Below, one piece after another: positions 9,143-53,765 of a stretch of 64,000 bases of DNA. Position numbers and translations under genes: made by a program. The DNA comes from a bacterium (GTDB lineage: Bacteria; Patescibacteriota; 4484-211; GCA-002791395), in the NCBI GenBank assembly GCA_027002475.1, contig JALWZS010000030.1, positions 54,827 through 118,826 on the forward strand, read 5' to 3'. Positions within the stretch are counted from its first letter, which is position 1, and each line of letters starts with the position of its first letter. The notes below the pieces were generated by a model, which saw only the letters and a program-made list of their open reading frames with translations, ran no database searches and was not told the DNA's origin.

Positions 9143-9953
9143 TTTAATTTCCTTGCCATTTGTACAAAGAGCAATAATCGGCGGTGTTCTTGTTGGGATA
9201 CTAGCTGCGACACTTGGAGTATTTGTTGTGCTTCGTAGGCAGTCTTTTTTGACCGAAGCAGTCTCACACGCTTCCTTGGCTGGAGTCGCTGCAGCCTTAC
9301 TTATAGCGTGGGAGCCTGTACTTCTTGCAATTGTTGTCGCAATACTCCTTGCCTTGCTGATCACTTACTTTAAGCGGAAAGCTCCGCTTGAGTCTGACTC
9401 ACTCATCGGCATATTTTTTTCACTCTTTTTCGCATTAGGTATAGTGTTAATCAACTTGTCTCCAACTTATCAACCAGAGGTAATGACGTATCTCTTTGGC
9501 TCTATTTTGGCGATTACATGGGAAGATTTAATTTATGCGGGTGTGGTGTTTGTCGTTTTAATTACAATAACAAAATATTTGTATAAACAGCTACTATACT
9601 TTACCTTTGATCCAGTTGGCGCGTACATTCGTGGAATAAAAGTAGAAAGGTTGGAGTATGTGATAAACATTCTTACAGCAATTGCAGTTGTAATCTCGGT
9701 TAAAGTTGTTGGGGTAATTCTTGTTACTGCACTTTTTATAATTCCTGCATCTAGTGCTAAGCTTTTAGCTAAAAGCTTTACGCAGATGATTCCTATTTCT
9801 ATAATTCTGTCATTACTATCTGTCCTTGTTGGACTTTGGCTTTCTATAGTTTCAAATCTCCCTCCTGGAGCGTTAATAGTGTTAGTGTCGGGTGGGATAT
9901 TCTTGGTAGTATTTACTTTAAGTAGGCTTAATTTATTAGGCAAATCAAACTAG
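9129..9953 (+). CDS. Metal ABC transporter permease (ZnuB-like)
   Basis: Polytopic membrane protein overlapping the ATPase stop. ABC-3 family pattern. Confidence 0.85.
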   Translation: MSIIDLISLPFVQRAIIGGVLVGILAATLGVFVVLRRQSFLTEAVSHASLAGVAAALLIAWEPVLLAIVVAILLALLITYFKRKAPLESDSLIGIFFSLFFALGIVLINLSPTYQPEVMTYLFGSILAITWEDLIYAGVVFVVLITITKYLYKQLLYFTFDPVGAYIRGIKVERLEYVINILTAIAVVISVKVVGVILVTALFIIPASSAKLLAKSFTQMIPISIILSLLSVLVGLWLSIVSNLPPGALIVLVSGGIFLVVFTLSRLNLLGKSN

Positions 9954-10592
9954 CAGTTTGAATGTCTGTCTGCGATTTTTAACTTCAACTACCTTGATGA
10001 CATCAATCTTTTTTAAAAAGTTAGTGAGTTTATATGCCGTTTGCTTTTTTATGTTAAAGGAGTGAATTAAATCATGGTTTGTAAAAAGTGGTGGTAGATC
10101 TTTGGGCAGAAGTTTTGCGTAATCCTTTTTGGATTTGAAGGTATGTTTTGAAACTATTTGTTGTAGCTTTGTGTCGATAATACTTACGCCTTTACGCCGC
10201 CAGCTTCCTTTGTTGTTAGCACTTCTAATTTCTATGACATCGACAAGTAACACTTCTAGCGTCAGGTTTGGCTCTCGAATGAGATGTGGAATATAGACAA
10301 GTTCATCCACAACATTAACAAGCGAACCTGTTTTGGGGGACTGCCTTTTCCGCAGTAGCGTTTCCAGGGAGGCGTCGTAAAGCTCTATTGTCTTTTTCCT
10401 GGGAATTGGGGCAACCAGTGTTATTTTGTGTTTAGTAAGTAGTTCCACTAGCTTAGTTTTTAAGTTTAAAAAACTATGTGTTTGGATTTCAATTAGGCGA
10501 TTTCGCCAAACAACGTCAATTATGAAGTTACCGACTTTGCTCTCAACAAGAGAGCCCTTTTTGGCATAAAGTTGCTTAATTGCAGCATGCAA
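9945..10592 (-). CDS. Hypothetical protein, possibly a PD-(D/E)xK-type nuclease fold
   Basis: FIIDVV...LIEIQ resembles a D...E-x-Q/K nuclease core. No firm family assignment. Confidence 0.35.
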   Translation of the reverse strand: MHAAIKQLYAKKGSLVESKVGNFIIDVVWRNRLIEIQTHSFLNLKTKLVELLTKHKITLVAPIPRKKTIELYDASLETLLRKRQSPKTGSLVNVVDELVYIPHLIREPNLTLEVLLVDVIEIRSANNKGSWRRKGVSIIDTKLQQIVSKHTFKSKKDYAKLLPKDLPPLFTNHDLIHSFNIKKQTAYKLTNFLKKIDVIKVVEVKNRRQTFKLLV

Positions 10593-11480: not shown

Positions 11481-12209
11481 CTACTTCCGCTGTGCTGTTA
11501 GCAGTAAGATTCCAGAATACCCGCTTCTGATAGGTTTTTTGCTTCTTGGAATACGAACTATGTTGATGTTTTTTGTTAGTCTGCCAAAAATTTGCAATAA
11601 TAATGTTTGGTTTACTGTGATTGTCGGATATCTAACGCCATCAACAAAGTAGTGCGTAGAGTTTTCCATAAACACAGCGACTAAATAGCCATCAGGATGC
11701 ACCAATTCGGTAAATCTCTTACATGCATTCATAAAGACATCGATTTGGTTTGATATGGCTTCGAGACAAAAATGAGATGTGGCAAGCGTATAACGTCTAC
11801 TGGTTGCTGTAAGGATGTTGTGTTTTCGAACTGCTACCGTCTGGAGCTTTTGTGGATATAAGCCTGACCGATAGGCGCGATCGTGCTTCATTAACATTCG
11901 CCAGTACTGTGACCATATGTGCGATGGGCTTACTGTTTGTTCCCTGAGAAACTTTAGATTGCTTTCTGATATATCGGTTAGTGTGATTTTTTTTGCGAAG
12001 GGCAGTAATGTCAGTGCAGGATATAAGTTTGGACCTGTTCCTACATCTATGACTGAATCGATCGGATTGATGCTTTTGTAAAAATCGGCAGTTAGCTGCA
12101 TGATTCGCATATCTTCTTCATGTAATACTCCGTAGTTGTTGGTTAAGTATGTTGTGGTTGGAAAGCCGTTCCACTCTGTAGTTTCGTGCATGATGGGGTT
12201 GTGGCGCAT
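11481..12209 (-). CDS. SAM-dependent methyltransferase of the NNMT/PNMT/TEMT family (small-molecule N-methyltransferase-like)
   Basis: YL..Y...ADFY...IDVGTGPNLYPALTLLPFAKKITLTDISESNL aligns with the NNMT motif LIDIGSGPTIYQLLSAC..F..I..TDY...N. The 5' extension in the ORF track (to 12278) overlaps the divergent regulator and is probably not translated. Confidence 0.7.
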   Translation of the reverse strand: MRHNPIMHETTEWNGFPTTTYLTNNYGVLHEEDMRIMQLTADFYKSINPIDSVIDVGTGPNLYPALTLLPFAKKITLTDISESNLKFLREQTVSPSHIWSQYWRMLMKHDRAYRSGLYPQKLQTVAVRKHNILTATSRRYTLATSHFCLEAISNQIDVFMNACKRFTELVHPDGYLVAVFMENSTHYFVDGVRYPTITVNQTLLLQIFGRLTKNINIVRIPRSKKPIRSGYSGILLLTAQRK

Positions 12210-12257
12210 GCTGTGCGTATTTAACGGTCTATTGGGTTTATAGTAAAATTGTTGTTC

Positions 12258-13043
12258 ATGGGGGTGAACAATGAGCACGTGGTGGCGACGCTTAAAAAGG
12301 TGGGGTTAAATGAAAAAGAGATTAGTGTTTATTTGAGTCTATTCAATCTTGGCAAATCCACGCCACATATGATATCGCAAGACACGGGCATTAATCGGAC
12401 GACCGTATACCGACAACTAGAAGGTTTAGAGAAGTTAGGCCTTGTTGTTCGCATTCTTGACCAAAATAAAACTTGGTTTGAGGTTACAGATGCGTCTTCA
12501 GTGGAGCGATTGGCTAAACAAAGGTTAATAGAAGCAGAGTCTTTACAATCTGAACTGGGCCAAATCGTCGAGTTCCTACAACAAAGCGATAAGCTAATAG
12601 CGTCTTCGACGACCGTAAAGTATTTTCGAGGCAAGGAAGGATTAAGACAACTTCTTTGGAATACACTTAAGGCAGGGGTGAGGAATGAGGTTGTAGGGTT
12701 AGGGTATCGTACTTGGAATGAAGATGTTGGGGAAAAGTTTGCAGAAAATTTGAGAAAAGAATATATAGCGCGCAAGGTATATTCGAGAGAGATATTAAAT
12801 CGGTTACCACCAATAAAAGAGTTTACGAAGCATAAGCTTTATGGGGAAAAACATTATAAGGCGGCATTAATTGACGAAACAGTTCTTAAAATCAGATACG
12901 ACACTTATATCTACAATGATGTCTTCGCTTTTTACTATGTTCGAAATAATGAACTATTTGGAGTTGAAATTCACAATAAAGAAATCACCGGTTCCCAAAA
13001 ACAAATCTTTGAGATTCTTTGGAATATGGCTAAAAAACTATGA
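12258..13043 (+). CDS. TrmB-family winged-HTH transcriptional regulator (paralogue 1)
   Basis: N-terminal EKEISVYLSLFNLGKSTPHMISQDTGINRTTVYRQLEGLEKLGLVVRI is a TrmB-type HTH. It has a C-terminal effector domain and is divergent from the NNMT-like methyltransferase. Confidence 0.75.
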   Translation: MGVNNEHVVATLKKVGLNEKEISVYLSLFNLGKSTPHMISQDTGINRTTVYRQLEGLEKLGLVVRILDQNKTWFEVTDASSVERLAKQRLIEAESLQSELGQIVEFLQQSDKLIASSTTVKYFRGKEGLRQLLWNTLKAGVRNEVVGLGYRTWNEDVGEKFAENLRKEYIARKVYSREILNRLPPIKEFTKHKLYGEKHYKAALIDETVLKIRYDTYIYNDVFAFYYVRNNELFGVEIHNKEITGSQKQIFEILWNMAKKL

Positions 13044-13063
13044 CGTTTAGGCTATCAGAAAGC

Positions 13064-14068
13064 TCAATGGTTTCGTTTATGCTTATTAAATTCCTGAATG
13101 GTTTCTTTTAGCATATTCATTTGATCTTCAGTGCTAATTGAAAACCTTACAAAGGATTTATCTAATCCGATATTGGCATTACCATTCCCTTGATTAAAGA
13201 TAAAATTGTGTGATTTAACGAAATTTGCAAATAAAGTTCCTTCTTCTTCTGAACTGAATTTTAGTAGTACGGCATTTATTCTGGATGGTAAATGGGGTAG
13301 ATTATTCTCGTCGAGAAACTTTTCGAAAGACTTTCTTCTTTCCTGAATTCCTTTGCGCATATTTTTAAAATAGTCTTCGTGATTTAGTGCGCTAATTGCT
13401 GCTCTGATTGATAAATAGGATACATTAGCCCACTGCGTTTGCGGCTTTACTTTGTCTACTACGTCAGGGTGTGCAATGAAGTACCCAATCCTATTTCCAG
13501 CCATACCATAGTCTTTGGAAAAGCTTCTGAATATCACGAGGTTTTCATAGTATTTAACTTGGTCGATCACAGAGAGTTCGGGAGCAAACTCTCCATAAGC
13601 CTCATCAACACAAACAATCGCGTGTTTGTTGTTTTTAATTAGCTCAATAACTTTATCTTTTGGAGTGATTCCAGAAGGGTTGTTGGGATTGGCCAGGAAA
13701 ATCAAAGTTGCGTCATGAATCGTGTCGGTTGTTATTGTATATTTTCCATCTGTAATAGATGGTATTTGAGTCAGTTGTCCACCAAATAGTTCGGCGTCTG
13801 CATAGACAAGATACGTAGGCGTAAATATATGCGTGGTTGCCCCAAAAGATCTTGCAAACATTTGAATGGCTTCATCGATTCCTGCTGTGAGGAAAATCAT
13901 TTCTTCAGATAAACCGTGTTTTTTAGCTAATTTAGAAATTAACTCTTTTGGCTGCGAGTGATAAACATTTGCGTGTAAGCAGTAGTCTTCTAACTCTTGA
14001 TAAATGAAATCTGGGAGCGGATCTTTTATGGTAGTGTATTGCAAGTTGACTGGCTGTTTAGTAGTCAT
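13064..14068 (-). CDS. Class I/II PLP-dependent aminotransferase, HisC-like (histidinol-phosphate aminotransferase family)
   Basis: PLP-lysine motif SFSKDYGMAGNRIGY. NPNNPSG substrate loop. Confidence 0.8.
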   Translation of the reverse strand: MTTKQPVNLQYTTIKDPLPDFIYQELEDYCLHANVYHSQPKELISKLAKKHGLSEEMIFLTAGIDEAIQMFARSFGATTHIFTPTYLVYADAELFGGQLTQIPSITDGKYTITTDTIHDATLIFLANPNNPSGITPKDKVIELIKNNKHAIVCVDEAYGEFAPELSVIDQVKYYENLVIFRSFSKDYGMAGNRIGYFIAHPDVVDKVKPQTQWANVSYLSIRAAISALNHEDYFKNMRKGIQERRKSFEKFLDENNLPHLPSRINAVLLKFSSEEEGTLFANFVKSHNFIFNQGNGNANIGLDKSFVRFSISTEDQMNMLKETIQEFNKHKRNH

Positions 14069-14081
14069 TTTGTTTGTGTAG

Positions 14082-15569
14082 TCATGTATCCCATGATACT
14101 CTACCTAATCGATCCTTCTTTTGCAGTATGAAGGCGACTTCTGTGTAGGAGTCTTCTCCTATAAAAGCATCATAGTGTTTTACATCTAGTACCTTAAGTC
14201 CCGCAAGGTGGCAATAGTGCTCAAATTCTTCTAGTTGTGGGAAATATCGACGATTACCTTGTTTTTCTGGTGAGTAAGGTTTATCTGTTGGACTCGCTTT
14301 AGCTGTAACTATTCCTGGTAAATCCTCGGGGTGGGTTTCTGTGTGTTTGATTATTAATTCCGGATATGGGCCAGTAGTGGGGTCTGGTATCTCAACAATT
14401 ACAACTCCGTCTTTTTTGACTAGGGAGCTTAATCTATTAAGCATTGTTACCATTTTGTGTGGGGAACCGGTAAAGTTAATGAAATTCCATGGGGCAACTA
14501 TTAAATCGGGCGTATCTTCGTAAATTGCTTCAAATGAATACGGTGTAAGTGTTTCTAACTGCGATTCAAGTGCGTGTATGAAATCACCTGCAAGTAGTTC
14601 GCGTTGTATGTCTTTGGGCAATTGAGTAAAATGAGGCACCTCTTGCAGTCGTTTTTTAAGTCTATGGCGGATATCATCTATTTGCTCGGGGGGCAGTACT
14701 TGCTGTAGCAGGGTATATAAGGGATCATTATTTGTGGCGCCTTCATTAGTTAATGCTTGTGCAAGTGTTAGCATACGCTCTTTTGTTTTGACAAGCCTTG
14801 AAGCGTTAATGTCGGTACCCACGACTGTATGCCCGAGGAGTGCTAGCGGAATAGCTATTCTCCCTTCTCCTGTACCAGCCTCTAGTATTGTTAAGTCTTG
14901 CTCTGGGAGTAAGTCTTGAATAGTTTCTAAAATAATGCGTAAGGTTTCTGCTGTGTTTGTGCGCTTTTTCTCAAGGCTTAGTAGATCTATCGTTTCTTGG
15001 ACTTGAAGCATACGCCTTGTTGTAGGTACTGTATCGTCGCTGTATAAACTTTTTGAGACGGCGATTAGCTTGAATACGTCTTCTGGGGTGCTTTCTAGAG
15101 TGTCTGGTGTTACGTGTAGTTCGTTAGGGGAGTGAGGTATTGTTATGTCTTCGTGACTGACTGCGATTATGGTGGGTACAGGGCTGTGCTTAAGTGATTG
15201 TGCTGCCTGTAGGAGTGTTTCTTCTGTAATTTCTGGGAAGGCTTGTTGGATAGTTTTTAAGTTTAGATCCAAGTGGGGTAAGGTTTCTAGAAAACCTGTC
15301 AGTTCATGTATTTCTGGCAGGGGGATATCGGTTGTGTCGATTACTATGTAGTGCAGGGGAGTGCCTGTACTTAGTATTTCAATTACTTTATAAAAGATAT
15401 CTTTGTAACTATCGGCGGCAAAATGTTCGCCGTTCATTTGGGAAGAATTTTCGGAGAGGTTAACAAGTAGAGTGTTTAATTTAAATGTTTTGAGGAGTTC
15501 TTGACGTTTAATTTCTAGTAGATTGGGAGTTCTAAGTTCTTTTGCTCCTTGCATTCTTTGTCGGGTCAT
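14082..15569 (-). CDS. Two-domain protein (paralogue P1). An unknown ~230-aa N-domain is followed by a class-I SAM methyltransferase domain (TPMT/TehB-like motif I) carrying a long insertion.
   Basis: Motif I ILEAGTGEGRIAIPLALLGHTVVGTDIN. Post-motif DLIVAPWNFINFTG...VKKDGVVIVEIPDP. Collinear with P2 at 17943-19415. Confidence 0.65.
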   Translation of the reverse strand: MTRQRMQGAKELRTPNLLEIKRQELLKTFKLNTLLVNLSENSSQMNGEHFAADSYKDIFYKVIEILSTGTPLHYIVIDTTDIPLPEIHELTGFLETLPHLDLNLKTIQQAFPEITEETLLQAAQSLKHSPVPTIIAVSHEDITIPHSPNELHVTPDTLESTPEDVFKLIAVSKSLYSDDTVPTTRRMLQVQETIDLLSLEKKRTNTAETLRIILETIQDLLPEQDLTILEAGTGEGRIAIPLALLGHTVVGTDINASRLVKTKERMLTLAQALTNEGATNNDPLYTLLQQVLPPEQIDDIRHRLKKRLQEVPHFTQLPKDIQRELLAGDFIHALESQLETLTPYSFEAIYEDTPDLIVAPWNFINFTGSPHKMVTMLNRLSSLVKKDGVVIVEIPDPTTGPYPELIIKHTETHPEDLPGIVTAKASPTDKPYSPEKQGNRRYFPQLEEFEHYCHLAGLKVLDVKHYDAFIGEDSYTEVAFILQKKDRLGRVSWDT

Positions 15570-15589
15570 ATCTAAATTATGCAGAGTTT

Positions 15590-15631
15590 ACGCAAAAAAG
15601 AAAGCCCCGACCGCATGAGAGCGGTCGGGGC
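15590..15631 (-). terminator. Rho-independent terminator: 11-bp perfect stem GCCCCGACCGC/GCGGTCGGGGC followed by a T-run on the minus strand
   Basis: Lies directly 3' of the minus-strand CDS 15638-16231. Confidence 0.8.
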
Positions 15632-15637
15632 TCGAAT

Positions 15638-16231
15638 TTATTCTTTGGTCTTGCGGCTTTTGTCGATTAGCGGCCGCAAGCCCTTTTCATCCCCTTTCTG
15701 AAGAGCCTGCTCGAGCTCTTCAGAAAGGGAACAGGGCTCGATCTCTCCTTCGGCGATGAAGGCGTGCTTGGCCCAAAAGGCCAGCGCCTCCTTTCGCTCA
15801 GAAGAAGAGATCCTAGTACTCCAAAGTTTGGAGTCCCCTGGCTCTCGCGGAGCCAGGTTAGCGCCAGGAAATAGGGTGAACAAAATCAAATCACCCTGTT
15901 TGCCCCAGCGCCCGAAAAGCACCACCCCGTGGTTGGGGTGGCGCTCATATCCCCTGACGAAGCGGCTGGGGGTGAACCGCCCGGGGCGGTAACCCCAGAA
16001 CACCTCGTCAGAGGCTTTTGTGGGAGTCACCCCTGTGAGCCCAAAGGACTCGTCAGGGAAAAAGACCCCCTCGAACCGCCCCACCCGTTCTTCGGGCGGG
16101 ACAGTTTTTGCGATTTCGGACTCCAGTCGCTCAACCAACTGAGCGACGAAGTCCGAAAATGACATCCCCTCGGGCACGATGAAGTCGCCCTCATGTGCCC
16201 GAAGGTGCTGCATATTGTAAAAAATTTTCAC
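15638..16231 (-). CDS. Hypothetical protein X, encoded in a GC-rich foreign-codon island (GTG start)
   Basis: SD GGAGGGCAAAG sits directly upstream of GTG. Codons are rich in GGG/CCC/GTG/TTC, unlike the AT-rich host. No recognisable domain. Confidence 0.55.
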   Translation of the reverse strand: MKIFYNMQHLRAHEGDFIVPEGMSFSDFVAQLVERLESEIAKTVPPEERVGRFEGVFFPDESFGLTGVTPTKASDEVFWGYRPGRFTPSRFVRGYERHPNHGVVLFGRWGKQGDLILFTLFPGANLAPREPGDSKLWSTRISSSERKEALAFWAKHAFIAEGEIEPCSLSEELEQALQKGDEKGLRPLIDKSRKTKE

Positions 16232-16265
16232 TTTGCCCTCCTTTGGGGGATTGGTGTAGGGTTTT

Positions 16266-16303
16266 CAACAAAAAAACCCGACTGCGCGTGTGCACAGCCG
16301 GGG
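16266..16303 (-). terminator. Rho-independent terminator (stem CCCGGCTG...CAGTCGGG + T7) between cassette genes Y and X
   Basis: On the minus strand the hairpin is followed by TTTTTTTG, immediately 3' of CDS 16320-16940. Confidence 0.65.
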
Positions 16304-16319
16304 GCAAGAAATGGCGTGT

Positions 16320-16940
16320 TTATTGCTTGTTCAGCGCGTTGAGAGCGCGGATAAATTCTTCACGCTCTTTGCTGGGATGCTCCTTCTGCAGGAGCTCCAG
16401 CGCCTTTTCGACGCTCACCTCCTTCTGGGCCCCACTGCTCCAAGCCCCCACATATATTGCTGCTGAATATGTGTGGGTGTTCAGGAAGACCTTTCCTTTT
16501 TCGTCGATTTCAAGGAAGAAAGTCTCCCTCAAGGATGTATACCAAAAACAACGATAATACTCGTAACGAATTATGGTGACCCTTTCCCCATCAGTTATGT
16601 GCGGGGCCACCAGTTCTTCGAAGCTGGGAATCTCGCTGTCCTCGAGTTCCCCGAGGTCAACTATACTAACCTCGAGATCTTCTTGCTCGAGGAGTCTTTT
16701 CAAGCCCTCGACCCCTTCTGTGCCGAGGGCACTCGCCCACTCTGCATACCGAGCGTAATCTGGGTCGTCGCTCGGTGTGGTGACAGTGGGCTCCTCAGCT
16801 ACGGCGTCGTCATTCCATATGTCTTCGAAATGGCTGACGACACGCTTTTTCCCTAGGAAGATGTGAGTGCAAAACACATCTTCCTCGATTGGCCCTCGGG
16901 CCGCTTTTTCTTTACTCATGCTTTCCAGTTTTATTTTCAT
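16320..16940 (-). CDS. Hypothetical acidic protein Y, encoded in the GC-rich foreign-codon island
   Basis: ATG preceded by the same GGAGGGCAAAG leader as gene X. GC-rich codons. The track ORF extends to 17237, but the RBS-supported start is at 16940. Confidence 0.55.
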   Translation of the reverse strand: MKIKLESMSKEKAARGPIEEDVFCTHIFLGKKRVVSHFEDIWNDDAVAEEPTVTTPSDDPDYARYAEWASALGTEGVEGLKRLLEQEDLEVSIVDLGELEDSEIPSFEELVAPHITDGERVTIIRYEYYRCFWYTSLRETFFLEIDEKGKVFLNTHTYSAAIYVGAWSSGAQKEVSVEKALELLQKEHPSKEREEFIRALNALNKQ

Positions 16941-17124
16941 CTTTGCCCTCCTTTTGGGCTGGTTGTGGGGGTATGCTACTTCCCCCGAAAGAAAAAATTG
17001 ATTGTTAAAGTTCTCGAGAGATGCCTGTATTATACTATGGGGTGCATCACATGTCAAGTGGTAACTAGCGGATGCTGGTTTGTGTATAATACTGTAGTGG
17101 TCGGACATACCTTGTATGTGGCTC

Positions 17125-17154
17125 ATATTTGTCAAGTGCATACTTGACAAATAT
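17125..17154. promoter_or_regulatory. Perfect 12-bp inverted repeat ATATTTGTCAAG-N6-CTTGACAAATAT. It overlaps a TTGACA(-35)-16bp-TATACT(-10) promoter for the TrmB-like gene and a mirrored TTGACA facing the GC-rich cassette.
   Basis: Read directly from the sequence. It sits 27 bp upstream of the ATG at 17181. Confidence 0.7.
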
Positions 17155-17180
17155 GCTTGCGCATGTATACTATAAGTAGT

Positions 17181-17969
17181 ATGGCAGAAATCGCAGAGAT
17201 TCTTACTAGTGCAGGCCTCAGTGATGGCGAATCCCAAGTTTACTTAAAGCTTCTTGAAACAGGTCGTACAAGTGCATCGACACTTGCAAGAGAAATGTCT
17301 ATGGCTAGAGGAGTGGTTTACTTCATCTTGGAACAACTTGAAAAGAAAGGATTGGTTGTTAGATTACCAAACGGCAAGCGATTCTTATACCAAGCCAAAC
17401 ATCCGAGCGAACTCTTGGCGCTAATAGATAGAAAAAAGCATGAACTAGAATCAAGTAAAGCTTCTATTGGCTCAATTATCCCAATGCTAAGTGAAATGTA
17501 CTCATCAACATCGGTTAAACCTGTCGTAAGTTACTTTGGTGGAGTTGAGGGAGTAAAGAAGGTTTATTTAGACACTCTTAAGGTTGGTGAAACGATATAT
17601 GCTGCGATGCATAGCGGTAGGGTGAATATGGACGTTCATAAGTGGGTGCGTGAAAAGTACGTTCCAGAGAGAGTAAACCGTGGAATAAAAGCTAAGGTCA
17701 TAATGTCTGCGAACGAACGCGTAGAGATTTTTAAGAAGGAAAACAAAGAAAAACTGCGTGAGATGATCGTTGTTGATAGCGATATATTCCATGTGAAAAT
17801 GGAAGTTAATATCTATGGTAACAAAGTTGGGTTCATATCTTCGCATGCAGATGCTGACTTATTCGGAGTTATCATTGATAGTCCATTTGTTGCTCAAAGT
17901 ATGTTGGCGCTTTGGAAGTTAGCTTGGATTGGTGCAGGTGGCTCACTGCCTCGTAGCGATGATAAATAA
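17181..17969 (+). CDS. TrmB-family winged-HTH transcriptional regulator (paralogue 2)
   Basis: MAEIAEILTSAGLSDGESQVYLKLLETGRTSASTLAREMSMARGVVYFILEQLEKKGLVVRL. The track start at 17157 would place the promoter inside the ORF. Confidence 0.75.
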   Translation: MAEIAEILTSAGLSDGESQVYLKLLETGRTSASTLAREMSMARGVVYFILEQLEKKGLVVRLPNGKRFLYQAKHPSELLALIDRKKHELESSKASIGSIIPMLSEMYSSTSVKPVVSYFGGVEGVKKVYLDTLKVGETIYAAMHSGRVNMDVHKWVREKYVPERVNRGIKAKVIMSANERVEIFKKENKEKLREMIVVDSDIFHVKMEVNIYGNKVGFISSHADADLFGVIIDSPFVAQSMLALWKLAWIGAGGSLPRSDDK

Positions 17970-19415
17970 CTCTGAGATTGTGTTAGTTTGCAGCTCTTTA
18001 GATTTTGGAATAATCCTTTCACGAGCAATCTTTTCTACAGAAAACCCGGCTAGCTGCAAAAGCATAGACAGCTCATCGGCGTTAGGGTAGTAGCGCAGTG
18101 CACCAAAACCATCATCATCTTCTTTGTATAATTGGTTGCCATGATGTTGAGCTTTTGCCCTAAAAAAGCCTGGCGGATTACTAGGGTGTTTGTAGTAATA
18201 CTCAGCTAACATACTTGCATACGGTTCATCTTTTGGGTTCGGGACTTCAATATATAGCACACCGCCCTTAGGTAGTGTGTTATATAAATGATTTAGGGTC
18301 CGCAGCATTTGGTCTGGCCCTCCAATAAAGTTAAGTGTATTCCATGCGAGAATTATCATTTCAGGTTGATTCGCCATAGCGTGTAGAGAGCGTTTATCAA
18401 GTTCTTGAATACCCATTTCAATCGGATGAAAACGGGTTAAAGCCTGCTCTACCTCATTTGATTGCAATAATTGCTCTGTATCAATCTCTAGCTCGGGGGC
18501 TACTCTTAGGAATTCATCTACAAGAGAATCGTCTGGAATGGCTCTTTTGGTTAATGCGGTAGTTGCCTCTTGCAACCGCTTCACTGCTGAGTCTAACCTA
18601 GTAGTAGCTGCATCGATGCCAATGACATTAAATCCAAGCAAAACGAGAGGTATCGCTATTCTCCCTTCACCAACTCCAGCCTCAAGAATATACCTTGGAA
18701 GATGCCCTGTCTTTTCATTAAACATGCGTATCCCTTCTAACACGTAAGTTAGTGACAACCTTAAGTCAGCGGATATCCGTTCAAGACTCCTTAGATTTAC
18801 ATGTTCTTGCCTGCGTTTTAATTGTTCGACCAATTCTTCGGTTTGAGCTGGAAAACGTGAGCGATTAAACGCGGCATCTTTAGCGGCTAGAAGATGAGGT
18901 TGAATATTGTCTTGTGAAGTTATTACACTATCAATCCCACCAATACTTCGAAGTTTTGCGGCAAGTTCATCATCTGTTGTTCGGACAATGAAGTAAGGGA
19001 TTTGCTTTGCTGTAACATTGTCTATGGCTTTTTGCACTTCATCTATGGAGTGCCCTTGTTGAATAAGATCATTTTCTATGGTGGCTTTGTCGTTGCCATC
19101 TGTTGCGGCTACTGCAAGGGCTGATTTCACTCGCAGTATACCTGTCAGATGAGGAAAATCTTCTTCGGATTCAACGTCTACTATTACTATATGAGTTATT
19201 TGTTCTTCTGCTAGTCTAGATATCAATTGTTGCGGAATCTCACTAACTGTAAGAATATCAACATCAGCTACCAAGTCATGTGCAGTTTCTGTAAGTGTGG
19301 GATCGGTTGCAAGAATATTGACAGGGAAGTTGCGTAAGGTCTCAGTAAATGTGGGTAATTTTTCGCGGTGTTCTTTGCCTATCAAACGCCTATGGCTAGT
19401 GCTGGCCTTTGTCAT
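17943..19415 (-). CDS. Two-domain protein (paralogue P2), an N-domain plus a class-I SAM methyltransferase domain, like 14082-15569
   Basis: Motif I ILEAGVGEGRIAIPLVLLGFNVIGIDAA. MIILAWNTLNFIGG...LPKGGVLYIEVPNPKD. Confidence 0.65.
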   Translation of the reverse strand: MTKASTSHRRLIGKEHREKLPTFTETLRNFPVNILATDPTLTETAHDLVADVDILTVSEIPQQLISRLAEEQITHIVIVDVESEEDFPHLTGILRVKSALAVAATDGNDKATIENDLIQQGHSIDEVQKAIDNVTAKQIPYFIVRTTDDELAAKLRSIGGIDSVITSQDNIQPHLLAAKDAAFNRSRFPAQTEELVEQLKRRQEHVNLRSLERISADLRLSLTYVLEGIRMFNEKTGHLPRYILEAGVGEGRIAIPLVLLGFNVIGIDAATTRLDSAVKRLQEATTALTKRAIPDDSLVDEFLRVAPELEIDTEQLLQSNEVEQALTRFHPIEMGIQELDKRSLHAMANQPEMIILAWNTLNFIGGPDQMLRTLNHLYNTLPKGGVLYIEVPNPKDEPYASMLAEYYYKHPSNPPGFFRAKAQHHGNQLYKEDDDGFGALRYYPNADELSMLLQLAGFSVEKIARERIIPKSKELQTNTISELFIIATRQ

Positions 19416-19452: not shown

Positions 19453-21201
19453 TTATTTAATCAACCCTTCGGTTTGGAGTTTCCAGAGTTTTTGATAGTG
19501 GCTACTGTTTTTAACCAATTCTTGATGGGTTCCTTCTTCAACGATTTTACCTCTATCTAACACAATAATTCTATCTGCACGCTGAATCGTTGAAAGCCTA
19601 TGTGCAATTATGATTGTTGTCTTACCCTTTCTTACTTTCCAGAATGCATCCTGAATTAACTTTTCAGACTCAGAATCTAAGTTGCTCGTCGCTTCGTCGA
19701 AAATGATTATATTTGGTTGACTTAAAATCATTCGTGCAATTGCTAATCTTTGACGTTGTCCTCCAGAAAGCTTAATGCCTCGCTCTCCAACCATTGTGTT
19801 ATATCCATCGGGAAGCGACTCAATGAATTTGTCGAGATGCGCCATTTTAGCAGCCGCCTTAATCATCTGCTTTGTAGGACGGTTTAGACCATACCCGATG
19901 TTATATGCAATCGTGTTGTTAAATAGTATTGGCTCTTGTGGAACGACACCCATAAAATGCCGTAAGTATTGTTTTTTCATTTCGCGTATATCAATTCCAT
20001 CAAGACTAATTATTCCTTCCTGTGGGTCATAAAATCTAAGAAGCAATTTCGTGATAGTGGTTTTCCCGGATCCTGAGCGACCTACAAGGGCGACTGCCTC
20101 ACCTGGTTTTATATCAAGATTAATATTGCGTAGCGCTTTGTTCTCGTTATCGTTATAGCTAAAAGACACGTTTTTAAACTCAATCTCACCGCGTATGTTT
20201 TTAATCCTTTTTGGTTTAACTGGATCTGGGACTTTGGTTTCCTCGTCGAGAAGAGCAAAGAACTTTTTTATATCTGCATAGTTTTTGGCAATGTTTCTTA
20301 ATCTGTAAAAGAGCCTGCGAACTTGACCAAAGAACCTATTTAAAAATACAAGAATTAACGCGAACTGCCCGGTGCTAATCGTACCGTGTTTAAGGTCTGA
20401 TATAAGAAGTACCATAATAACAGCATATCCCGTAAAGTTTAATGCAGTATTAATTAGGTCAACAAATCTAAAAGAGTACGAAAAGCTCCATATTTTTCTA
20501 TACCAATCCTTAAATGTGTTTGTGAGATTTCGTAGTTCACTGTCTTCTTGGGCGAATAATTTGACGGTATCGTAATTAAGCCAATTCTCGGTGATGATGC
20601 CAGAGACTTTATCGTCCGCATTAACAAAATCTACTCGTCTTGAAATGTTTAGAGGAATCAAGAAACGCATTGCGATAAGGTTGATGACAAGTAGGATGAG
20701 TGTAACAAGCGTGTATTTAGGATTAACCATCCAATATGAAACTAGTAGGATGCCAAATAGTATTATTAAACGATAAATTTCTTGTAAGACTTCAGTGATG
20801 GAAAAAAATGCTCCAGAGCCACGCTTAAAAGCGCTAATTAAAGCCCCAGTGTTTTTCTCTGTGTGGAATGCGAAATCAAGATCTTGTACATGCTTAAATA
20901 TCTTTAGAGTTACATCTCTGGAGCTTCGAATAATAAATTTATCATGAGCGAGCCATATAAGAACGTCTAAGATGTTATCCATAAAGATGATGAAAAGGAA
21001 GGCTATCGTTAGGGGGATTAAGTTTGAGAATTTTCCGGCATTGATGTTATCAATGTAAAATTGGAAAAAGTAAGGGTAAAGACTTGTTGTTATCGCAATA
21101 AGTGTTACCAAAAAGAAGGTTAGAAACACCCAGAATTTATACTTCATATGGAAAGAGAAGAGTTGTTTTAGGGTTTGTAGCATAGATTTCACATAATACA
21201 T
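19453..21201 (-). CDS. ABC exporter, fused permease-ATPase (MsbA/MdlB type)
   Basis: Six-TM N-half. GRSGSGKTT, LSGGQRQRLAIAR, IIIFDEATSNLD. Confidence 0.9.
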   Translation of the reverse strand: MYYVKSMLQTLKQLFSFHMKYKFWVFLTFFLVTLIAITTSLYPYFFQFYIDNINAGKFSNLIPLTIAFLFIIFMDNILDVLIWLAHDKFIIRSSRDVTLKIFKHVQDLDFAFHTEKNTGALISAFKRGSGAFFSITEVLQEIYRLIILFGILLVSYWMVNPKYTLVTLILLVINLIAMRFLIPLNISRRVDFVNADDKVSGIITENWLNYDTVKLFAQEDSELRNLTNTFKDWYRKIWSFSYSFRFVDLINTALNFTGYAVIMVLLISDLKHGTISTGQFALILVFLNRFFGQVRRLFYRLRNIAKNYADIKKFFALLDEETKVPDPVKPKRIKNIRGEIEFKNVSFSYNDNENKALRNINLDIKPGEAVALVGRSGSGKTTITKLLLRFYDPQEGIISLDGIDIREMKKQYLRHFMGVVPQEPILFNNTIAYNIGYGLNRPTKQMIKAAAKMAHLDKFIESLPDGYNTMVGERGIKLSGGQRQRLAIARMILSQPNIIIFDEATSNLDSESEKLIQDAFWKVRKGKTTIIIAHRLSTIQRADRIIVLDRGKIVEEGTHQELVKNSSHYQKLWKLQTEGLIK

Positions 21202-21281
21202 GGGTTTTTGTTCGCTGTAAAGCGTTATTCGTCTACTCTCAAAACATGGTGTAAAATCTTTGTTAGAATACACTAACTTGT

Positions 21282-21358
21282 GGGCCCATAGCTCAGTTGG
21301 CTAGAGCGCCACGCTGGCAGCGTGGAGGTCAGGGGTTCAAATCCCCTTGGGTCCACCA
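21282..21358 (+). tRNA. tRNA-Ala (anticodon GGC), CCA encoded
   Basis: Cloverleaf with a G3:U70 pair and anticodon loop CTGGCAG. A terminator-like hairpin GCCGAACTGTTTCGGC follows. Confidence 0.9.
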
Positions 21359-52427: not shown

Positions 52428-52529
52428 CTCTTATAAAGAGAGGTGGAGGGACCGGCCCGATGAAGCCTCGGCAGCCTGCAAAAGCAAGGTGCCAATTCCG
52501 GCAAGGTGAAGACCTTGAAAGATGAGAGG
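52428..52529 (+). promoter_or_regulatory. SAM-I (S-box) riboswitch aptamer in the metK leader
   Basis: CTCTTATAAAGAGAGGTGGAGGGACCGGCCCGATGAAGCCTCGGCAGCC...AAGGTGCCAATTCCGGCA...GATGAGAG matches the S-box consensus. Expression-platform terminator at 52547-52569. Confidence 0.9.
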
Positions 52530-52604: not shown

Positions 52605-53765
52605 ATGTTATTTACGTCAGAATCAGTTACACAGGGGCATCCAGACAAGGTCTGCGATCAAATCAGTGATGCAGTTTTAGATGCTTGTTTGGCGCAAGAT
52701 CCTAACTCTAGGGTAGCGTGTGAGGTTGCGACCAAAACAGGGTTTGTCATTTTAATGGGTGAGATTACAACTAATGCTCGAGTTGATTTTGAGGAAATTG
52801 CTAGAAATGTCCTTTTAGACATTGGCTATGACAGTAGTGAAGCGGGTTTGGATGGTAATACCTGTGGAGTTTTAACATCAATTAGCAAACAATCTCCAGA
52901 TATCGCACGAGGTGTAAATTCGGCCAAAGATGAGAGAGAAACTTTAGGTGCAGGAGATCAAGGTTTGATGTTTGGCTATGCTTGCAACGAAACAGAAAAC
53001 TTAATGCCACTTCCCATCGAGCTTGCTCATAAGCTAGTAAAAGGTTTAGCCAACGCAAGAAAATCAGGTGAACTTCCATGGCTTAGACCAGATGGCAAAA
53101 GTCAGGTAACTGTTGAATATGATGACAACGGGCGACCAAAACGAATTGACACGGTCCTAATTAGCACTCAGCACTCGCCAGATGTCAGTCAACAAGAGAT
53201 TCGTGAAGCTTTGATTGATAAGGTAATTATGCCGCAATTGCCAAAAGACTTAGTTGATGAGAGTTTAAAGATTTTGGTTAATCCAACTGGGCGTTTTGTG
53301 ATTGGTGGTCCTGCTGGAGATGCTGGGCTTACTGGTAGAAAGATTATGGTTGATACTTATGGGGGGATGGCAAGGCATGGTGGGGGAGCATTTTCCGGGA
53401 AAGATGCAACTAAAGTTGACCGGTCTGCGGCGTATGCTCTTCGCAAGGTCGCTAAAACAGTTGTTTCTAAAGGAATGGCAGATAGGTGTGAGGTGCAAGC
53501 CGCTTATGCAATCGGTGTAGCAAAACCTGTTAGTTTGTTTGTTGAAACTTTTGGTACAGGGAAGGTAAGTGATAAAGAGATTTTAGAGTTTATCAAAAAA
53601 GAGTTTGACTTAAGACCGGGAGCGATTATTCAAGATTTAGGTCTTAGAAAGCCTATTTTTAGGCCCCTAGCTACATACGGTCACTTCGGAAGAGAGGACT
53701 TGGGGGTGGAGTGGGAGAAGGTCGTAGAGTGTGAATCAACTGTGAGGGCGACAAATGTTGTTTGA
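52605..53765 (+). CDS. metK: S-adenosylmethionine synthetase
   Basis: [26 protein letters not shown] and GGGAFSGKD. Confidence 0.95.

Follow-up and report, generated by a model that had tools for sequence, protein, structure and literature searches.

Introduction

In the quorum-sensing pairs EsaI/EsaR and ExpI/ExpR, the genes for the enzyme and the regulator are convergent and overlap at their 3′ ends, and the EsaR/ExpR-type repressor acts on a 20-bp palindrome at its own promoter until it is relieved by the product of the enzyme. Transcription factors are very scarce in Patescibacteria, and how these bacteria regulate their genes is, to our knowledge, almost wholly unexplored. Here we describe a 64,000-nucleotide stretch of DNA from a member of this group (GenBank assembly GCA_027002475.1, contig JALWZS010000030.1, positions 54,827 to 118,826), hereafter referred to as the window, in which two genes for S-adenosylmethionine (SAM)-dependent methyltransferases, P1 and P2, each lie in a module with the gene for a TrmB-like transcriptional regulator, TrmB1 and TrmB2 respectively.

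DNA recognition by TrmB proteins has been assigned to residue Tyr50 (PMC4158304), and the family member TrmBL2, which is devoid of the sugar-binding part, is a component of chromatin that also acts as a global repressor (PMC4158304, PMC3031468). A literature search gave no account of a TrmB-methyltransferase pairing and none joining TrmB with Patescibacteria. The two modules had been singled out in an earlier note on this DNA, and all eight open reading frames (ORFs) were found at or near their stated positions.

Results

In module 2, the gene for TrmB2 (17163 or 17181..17969, forward strand, the start at 17181 being preferred on the basis of the alignment) converges with that for P2 (17943..19415, reverse strand) and the two 3′ ends overlap by 27 nt (17943-17969). 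Module 1 contains TrmB1 (12258..13043, forward strand) and P1 (14082..15569, reverse strand; 490 residues according to the gene caller, which places the start five codons later). These are the only two TrmB-like genes in the 64-kb window, and each lies beside a methyltransferase of the same family. Members of this family were obtained by exhaustive search of protein representatives, and their loci, designated by L numbers, via a narrower alignment (A4). In all 15 intact independent loci that were fetched, a TrmB-like gene lies directly downstream of the methyltransferase gene and on the opposite strand. The pairing was seen in L002, L006, L007, L008, L009, L010, L011, L014-L018, L019, L020, L022 and L024 and spans all three visible subfamilies of the methyltransferase; the TrmB-like partners are 253-291 residues long as called, and approximately 260 after correction of the start. 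The 3′ ends overlap by 4 nt in L002, L009, L011, L014, L016 and L022, overlap by 26-32 nt in L006, L007, L019, L020 and the window, and lie 0-46 nt apart in L008, L015, L017, L018 and L024. The sole exception is L013, where a transposase gene (862-1737, with integrase-like motifs) takes the place of the 3′ end of the methyltransferase gene. The synteny of TrmB and methyltransferase genes, which the earlier note had proposed to look for in related genomes, is thus kept in every intact locus examined. Since the cassette was met again in every intact related fragment fetched, generally together with a palindromic operator of its own, the pairing is real, and it is not due to chance.

The loci carry labels such as Saccharibacteria (L006), Doudnabacteria (L007) and an unclassified “bacterium” metagenome-assembled genome (MAG; L002), and the cassette appears to be specific to Patescibacteria (candidate phyla radiation). 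The relatives' labels and the gene content of the window indicate that the window, too, is probably patescibacterial. L008 is labelled Gammaproteobacteria, yet its cassette and operator are those seen in the Patescibacteria MAGs, and this bin label may be wrong. The TrmB-like proteins of L006 and L007 are approximately 70% identical by eye despite their different phylum-level labels.

Both regulators of the window contain the winged-helix domain PF01978, TrmB1 with 52.7 bits and TrmB2 with 49.3 bits against a cut-off of 25.6, which bears out the TrmB-type helix-turn-helix (HTH) regulator proposed beside each methyltransferase. The two proteins share 25% identity over 249 residues (E 1e-22). 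PF01978 is present in all of the 14 partners compared, which align over their full length with a well conserved C-terminal domain and in which the recognition-helix residues Arg43 and Tyr47 (TrmB2 numbering from 17181) are invariant. None of these 14 proteins contains the sugar-binding effector domain PF11495 at E ≤ 0.1. The regulators are of the TrmBL2 type, and the earlier view of them as sugar sensors, whose pairing with methyltransferases would for that reason be unusual, is not supported. TrmB1 can be aligned from end to end with 12 of the partners found at other loci, and TrmB2 shows 27-33% identity to partners of other loci over its full length, and 42% to the partner in L019 over the 154 residues present. 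Specifically, the profile match of the TrmB-like partners to TrmBL2 (5BOX, 5BPD) has an E value of 1e-6 and covers profile positions 9-176, extending into the C-terminal domain. The top eight Foldseek matches were all to TrmBL2, full length (E 2e-7), with low TM-scores (0.33) because the TrmB2 model is poor outside the winged helix. The NCBIfam equivalog models for TrmB and TrmBL1 gave 22-29 bits against cut-offs of 600-650, and that for TrmBL2 gave 23 bits, its cut-off of 530 not being reached; the likeness to TrmBL2 is at the level of architecture and is not one of orthology.

A palindrome at 17125-17154, upstream of TrmB2, had been picked out previously as a possible binding site for the regulators. 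This putative operator, TATTTGTCAAGT-GCAT-ACTTGACAAATA, is a perfect palindrome and, judging from the other loci, one instance of a conserved type of operator that accompanies the TrmB-like gene. Its core, TTGTCA-AGTGCATACT-TGACAA at 17129-17150, has a 10-nt spacer (N10) and is unique in the window, where 0.02 matches would be expected by chance. L020 contains TTGTCA-ACTTAACACT-TGACAA, again with N10, just upstream of the corrected start of its TrmB-like gene, and this spacing is that of the P2 subfamily (window and L020). A 20-bp form, TTGTCA-N8-TGACAA, occurs in one to three copies in 12 of 14 independent loci when the 300 nt upstream of the TrmB-like gene are counted with at most one mismatch per arm. 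There were 24 N8 sites in 4.3 kb of upstream windows and 2 in the remaining 142.5 kb; as these upstream regions had also served to define the pattern, the enrichment and its nominal P value are inflated, but 24 versus 2 is still stark.

The right arm of the palindrome contains the −35 box of the predicted TrmB2 promoter (TTGACA-16-TATACT, 17144..17171, forward strand, 11 of 12 consensus matches), which would leave a very short leader, or none, before the ATG at 17181. On the reverse strand, a predicted sigma-70 promoter with 12 of 12 consensus matches (TTGACA-17-TATAAT, 17029..17057) is directed toward two genes divergent from TrmB2, F206 and E197, and an equivalent divergent promoter is visible in other loci. 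In typical loci, one palindrome lies over the −35 box of the regulator promoter and a second, 60-130 bp away, over that of the divergent promoter. No such palindrome was found in front of any methyltransferase gene in the loci scanned. A regulated methylation pathway in the simple sense, as had been suggested, does not agree with this layout, in which the operators belong to the regulator and divergent promoters and not to the methyltransferase genes.

P1 and P2 show 30% identity over approximately 300 C-terminal residues (E 2e-35), and their N-terminal halves can scarcely be aligned. Both pass the Pfam gathering score of Methyltransf_23 (31.3 and 33.5 bits versus 27), have in common the segments EAG(T/V)GEGRIAIPL..LG..V.G.D and (I/V)E(I/V)P(D/N)P, and retain the features of class I SAM methyltransferases, namely a Rossmann-like fold, an intact motif I of the form (E/D)xGxGxG and an acidic residue that follows strand 2. 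Strands 2 and 3 are separated by a helical insertion, 60-85 residues in length; in the P2 model it consists of four helices between the strand at 263-267 and that at 329-332. Many family members have a second insertion before strand 4. The alignment, the Pfam match and the P2 model together confirm the description of P1 and P2 as collinear paralogues with a class I methyltransferase domain split by an insertion.

When 1.84 billion representatives were searched with a profile of P1 and P2, 59 proteins matched at E ≤ 1e-10 and 6 at E ≤ 1e-30. The matched representatives are 134-1119 residues long and, according to cluster look-ups, the family members are unnamed metagenomic singletons. The region conserved across the family runs from approximately 40 residues before motif I to the C-terminus, with the hallmark motifs DLREWE.KTADT..SL, GTGEGRI, W(H/N)TF, IEIPDR..PYA, HPDEP.GT, RYFP and KE.FI.A.KP; the sole invariant residue in 60 aligned sequences is a Trp after strand 4. 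Three subfamilies are visible: a P2-like one, a “WHTFCE” type and a “WHTLGFAG” type of approximately 1000 residues. Word-indexed protein searches were near-empty beyond the query, giving 1 match for P1, 3 for the 60-sequence alignment and 6 for a domain-only alignment, and no matches were found in a genome collection scanned with the P1 and P2 alignment or in a metagenome collection scanned with the P2-subfamily alignment. On this sequence evidence, P1 and P2 belong to a rare, unannotated methyltransferase family.

The N-terminal regions range from 170 to 800 residues across the family, with approximately 180 in P1 and P2. No Pfam domain was recognised in those of 60 members, and a permissive Pfam scan of long members gave only marginal HEAT_2 matches, in two of them. 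The AlphaFold model of P2 has a mean predicted local distance difference test (pLDDT) value of 66, with block means mostly of 67-90 in the methyltransferase domain, and gives the N-terminal domain a (beta-alpha)5 topology at low confidence. A receiver-domain identity for the latter was considered and rejected: hhalign against CheY returned a probability of 0.4%, the candidate Asp positions are not conserved, and there was neither a PDB profile match nor a Pfam match. Several named methyltransferases were likewise dismissed, namely CmoM (NCBIfam 25.4 bits versus a cut-off of 366), PrmC (15.9 versus 199), NpmA (at most 16.6 bits versus 60 among the family relatives) and the daptide-type methyltransferase NF041820 of ribosomally synthesised and post-translationally modified peptides (24.5 and 25.1 bits versus 175, in the motif I region only). 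P1 and P2 fall into no curated housekeeping rRNA or tRNA family, the best NCBIfam score being approximately 25 bits against cut-offs of 175-366; identity with a known housekeeping methyltransferase, which the earlier note had named as the finding that would overturn its proposal, is thus far from being reached.

P2 shares 38% identity with P0003, a protein from another metagenome, and only 25-30% with P1. Similarly, TrmB2 matches the partners of other loci at E values of 1e-26 to 1e-38 and TrmB1 matches the same proteins at 1e-9 to 1e-17. Locus L019, whose synteny with the window extends over ZnuABC and a glycosyltransferase gene, has a single, P2-like module and lacks at that position a DUF8091-annotated ORF, SodA and the entire module 1. 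Because P2 and TrmB2 are nearer to other loci than to their counterparts in the window and L019 has one module only, the two modules are best seen as old paralogues or separate acquisitions, and the proposal that they were duplicated in situ is not supported. By these comparisons module 2 is the canonical cassette, and module 1 would be an old paralogue or a separate acquisition in which a HisC-like gene has been inserted between the methyltransferase and the regulator.

Two further genes accompany module 1. On its divergent side, and separated from TrmB1 by a 48-bp intergenic region, sits a gene (11481..12209, reverse strand) for a methyltransferase of the NNMT/PNMT/TEMT superfamily (PF01234, 64.3 bits versus 25; PDB relatives PNMT and NNMT, E 3e-7). 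Its family assignment in the earlier note holds at the level of the Pfam gathering score; the epithet “eukaryote-like” is unnecessary, the best NCBIfam model being the bacterial NF040568 (SCO2525_fam, 182 bits, under the cut-off of 240); the SCO2525 literature gives no function. The HisC-like gene (13064..14068, reverse strand), convergent with TrmB1, encodes a class I/II pyridoxal phosphate-dependent aminotransferase (Aminotran_1_2, E 2e-37; PDB HisC, E 2e-28) in which the motif FSKDYGMAGNRIGY with the Schiff-base lysine can be read in the translation. The HisC-type label given previously holds for the fold family and for the best NCBIfam model (TIGR01141 hisC, 183.8 bits), but not at the level of the equivalog cut-off (276.55); the protein is also close to CobD, again below the equivalog cut-offs, and no other histidine-biosynthesis gene was found among the window ORFs scanned. 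Only 13 nt separate this gene from the end of P1, which precedes it on the strand they share, and the two probably form one operon. None of the other loci yielded a homologue of the NNMT-like or the HisC-like gene, so both are placed outside the conserved unit, contrary to their earlier inclusion in the set.

F206 (16320..16940, reverse strand; 206 residues according to the gene call) and E197 (15638..16231, reverse strand) are the first and second genes of the transcript divergent from TrmB2. Their G+C contents, 0.49-0.56 for F206 and 0.55-0.60 for E197, compare with approximately 0.40 for the window. The strong Shine-Dalgarno context is identical in both, AAAGGAGGGCAAAG, and a hairpin resembling a terminator lies behind each gene, at 16277..16302 on the reverse strand for F206 and at 15602..15633 for E197, the latter being GC-rich with a T-run on both strands. 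Overall, this block looks foreign. Neither gene gave a Pfam or NCBIfam match, F206 had no match in PHROG or PADLOC scans, and E197 had no relatives in viral contigs or in the PDB. In L020, the gene that faces directly away from the TrmB-like gene encodes a homologue of E197 (36% identity, E 2e-30) and is also G+C-rich; both proteins weakly match phrog_23674 (E 0.0006-0.0025), a phage family without known function.

The genes beyond the divergent promoter differ between loci, and in most loci their G+C content is above that of the flanks, raised values being found in L002, L006, L007, L010, L014, L017, L020 and the window. ThiF/E1-like clusters are found beyond the TrmB-like gene in L002 (14273-17921), L006 (approximately 11556-13661) and L022 (11335-14322). 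The cluster in L022 also includes a Prok-JAB protein and that in L002 a protein giving weak ThiS-like matches, and the ThiF protein matches defence-associated E1-E2 models. The clusters of L002 and L006 are homologous to each other, and that of L022 shows no BLAST similarity to either. L006 (8917-9587) and L007 (8901-9362) contain, beyond the divergent promoter and before the first ORFs that follow on that side of the TrmB-like gene, non-coding blocks with hairpin potential that are 87-93% identical; these were found neither in the other loci nor in the window, had no Rfam match, and are candidates for a non-coding RNA or a long leader.

ORF-poor gaps of 0.6-2.2 kb occur on the divergent side in several loci. 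No Rfam family was detected in those of L006 and L022, and none at the gathering threshold in seven loci. Gaps of 1.2-2.2 kb, as seen in L022 (9128-11335), L024 (9308-10808), L008 (4942-6472) and L010 (2940-4162), are unusual for compact genomes. In L008, a stretch of approximately 80 nt occurs twice, 967 nt apart, with blocks of 33 and 30 nt that are 93-94% identical.

Elsewhere in the window, a gene called as an ABC exporter (ABC_membrane and ABC_tran domains; 19453-21273, reverse strand) precedes P2 at a distance of 37 nt, and P2 may be co-transcribed with it; a tRNA-Ala(GGC) gene (21282-21358) is located just beyond. A 215-residue ORF (9945-10592), annotated as DUF8091 in Pfam, lies between ZnuABC and a gene for an Fe/Mn superoxide dismutase, and this annotation was not reproduced in a separate Pfam scan. 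A SAM riboswitch (S box, 89 bits) was detected at 52428-52528, upstream of a 386-residue ORF (52605-53765), in a genome which also has three extra SAM-dependent methyltransferases.

Discussion

We propose that the window contains two anciently diverged copies of one cassette, in which the gene for a TrmBL2-type repressor stands tail-to-tail with that for a multi-domain SAM methyltransferase and the two proteins are functional partners; we give this reading about an even chance. A dimer of the regulator would repress its own gene and the divergent transcript, which in the window carries F206 and E197, and the methyltransferase would be a functional partner of the switch and not its target. Most likely, the enzyme would make or remove a methylated small molecule or peptide amine that is sensed by the C-terminal domain of the regulator; less likely, it would methylate the regulator itself. 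Convergent overlapping transcription may also make the expression of the two genes mutually antagonistic. It is unlikely, in our view, that the cassette goes as far as being an undescribed signal-and-switch unit of Patescibacteria, in which a methylated effector or methylation of the repressor would release a variable, foreign-looking cargo of phage-like genes, E1/JAB ubiquitin-like systems or long non-coding transcripts.

Several observations weigh against a functional partnership of this kind. For TrmBL2, no ligand of the C-terminal domain is known and DNA is bound with little specificity (PMC3031468, PMC4158304), and the sensing of an effector by the regulators described here is purely our inference. 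All of the loci were found through the methyltransferase, so that the pairing is seen from the side of the enzyme. The operator enrichment is inflated for the reason given above, the divergent promoter of the window has a half-site at most, and upstream of TrmB1 there is no inverted repeat and no recognisable operator. Lastly, the N-terminal domain of P2 is modelled with a pLDDT of approximately 60 only, and a structure search with the P2 model returned generic methyltransferases only.

The methyltransferase could instead be an accessory, for self-protection or counter-defence, of a mobile or conflict island whose cargo is silenced by the TrmB-like protein acting as a repressor of the type found in phages or integrative and conjugative elements. 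The two operators with divergent promoters do recall the cI/cro layout, the cargo is variable and G+C-rich relative to its surroundings, E197 and its L020 homologue resemble, if weakly, a phage family, and three loci carry E1/ThiF-type clusters on the divergent side, one of them with a JAB protein, with matches to defence-associated models. In addition, the block in L002 interrupts the rpsP-KH ... trmD neighbourhood, and the copy in L013 is disrupted by an insertion sequence element. Yet the window contains no integrase, recombinase or phage structural gene, and neither a repeat of the 3′ end of tRNA-Ala nor any other duplication resembling an att site. Its “cargo” amounts to two genes; PADLOC gave generic matches only, the methyltransferase core matching mad2 (E 7e-10 and 3e-7) and the HTH domain matching Csa3/CasR; the PHROG family matched so weakly is one without known function; and the E1 clusters of L022 and L002 lack BLAST similarity. 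We regard such an island switch as improbable. An amine methylation pathway duplicated in place, in which the aminotransferase would make an amine for methylation by P1, P2 and the NNMT-like enzyme under the control of the TrmB proteins, is in our opinion distinctly unlikely. The 13-nt spacing of P1 and the HisC-like gene on one strand, the N-methyltransferase character of the NNMT/PNMT type and the daptide amine methyltransferase as best NCBIfam match, far under its cut-off as it is, would all suit this pathway, but the aminotransferase and NNMT-like genes are missing from all other loci, no operator precedes any methyltransferase gene, the modules are not a recent duplication and the regulators are without an effector domain of known type. 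For module 1, and for that module only, formation of an amine followed by its N-methylation would fit the putative P1-HisC-like operon and is possible as a feature specific to this genome.

The strict one-to-one pairing could also mean that the enzyme methylates a protein, either the TrmBL2-like regulator or another nucleoid protein, with its variable N-terminal region serving for recognition of the partner. TrmBL2 is itself a chromatin protein and global repressor (PMC3031468), and N-terminal regions of 170-800 residues with marginal HEAT matches in two long members suggest macromolecule recognition; since the family has no specific similarity to known lysine, arginine or N-terminal protein methyltransferases and its structural matches are all generic, we find this idea very doubtful. 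That P1 and P2 are housekeeping RNA methyltransferases which lie beside HTH regulators by chance is almost certainly wrong. Weak, partial matches to models of CmoM, NpmA and a cap methyltransferase point in that direction, but they are confined to the SAM-binding core and 10-20 times under the curated cut-offs, the family is rare even among 1.84 billion representatives, and the pairing is found with a dedicated operator in 15 of 15 intact loci. A housekeeping RNA methyltransferase role is effectively excluded.

Conclusions

The comparison defines, across several lineages, a subfamily of regulators, the operator that goes with it (TTGTCA-N8/N10-TGACAA, overlapping the −35 box) and an enzyme family obligately linked to it, and it corrects the habit of taking the name “TrmB” in annotations to mean a sugar sensor. 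The cassette would be a signal-and-receptor pair of a new kind if its methyltransferase provides the input of the switch, and it would bear on the handling of mobile DNA and defence by ultrasmall symbionts if the switch guards foreign cargo. Should both hold, as in the signal-and-switch reading, these episymbionts would have a lineage-specific control of conflict or host-interaction genes.

Among described proteins, the best solved relative of the TrmB-like partners, both by profile and by fold, is the archaeal TrmBL2 (TK0471/PF0496; PDB 5BPD, 5BOX, 5BQT). Like TrmBL2, the partners are approximately 260 residues long and consist of an N-terminal winged helix of TrmB type, a long helix for dimerisation and a C-terminal domain that lacks the sugar-binding part; the recognition-helix Tyr is kept as well (PMC4158304). 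Unlike TrmBL2, to which they show approximately 20% identity, they are bacterial and always paired with a methyltransferase gene; they are also tied to a 20-22 bp palindrome at their own promoter, and this conserved operator argues for site-specific binding in place of a coating of the DNA or an abundant and mostly sequence-independent association with chromatin. With the sugar-sensing TrmB and TrmBL1 they share the PF01978 domain, a palindromic operator and the proposed role of repressor, but PF11495 is absent from all 14 and there is no sugar transporter or glycolytic context here. P1 and P2 show 12-21% identity to N-methyltransferases of the Methyltransf_11/23/25 class, namely CcbJ (4HGY), YunM (7WZF), CypM (7WZG), MtfA (3G2M) and GSMT (5GWX), from which they are set apart by the insertion between strands 2 and 3, the N-terminal region and the motifs W(H/N)T(F/L), IE(I/V)PD(R/P), P-Y-A, HP..P.G and RYFP, which are specific to the family.

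In its gene arrangement, the cassette resembles EsaI/EsaR and ExpI/ExpR. There is no homology between the two kinds of pair, one combining LuxI with LuxR and the other a SAM methyltransferase with a TrmB-family protein, and no sign of a diffusible product was seen here; the resemblance would be one of working principle. Overall, we seem to be dealing with a repressor-plus-enzyme cassette in a variant that has not been described before and is restricted to certain lineages.

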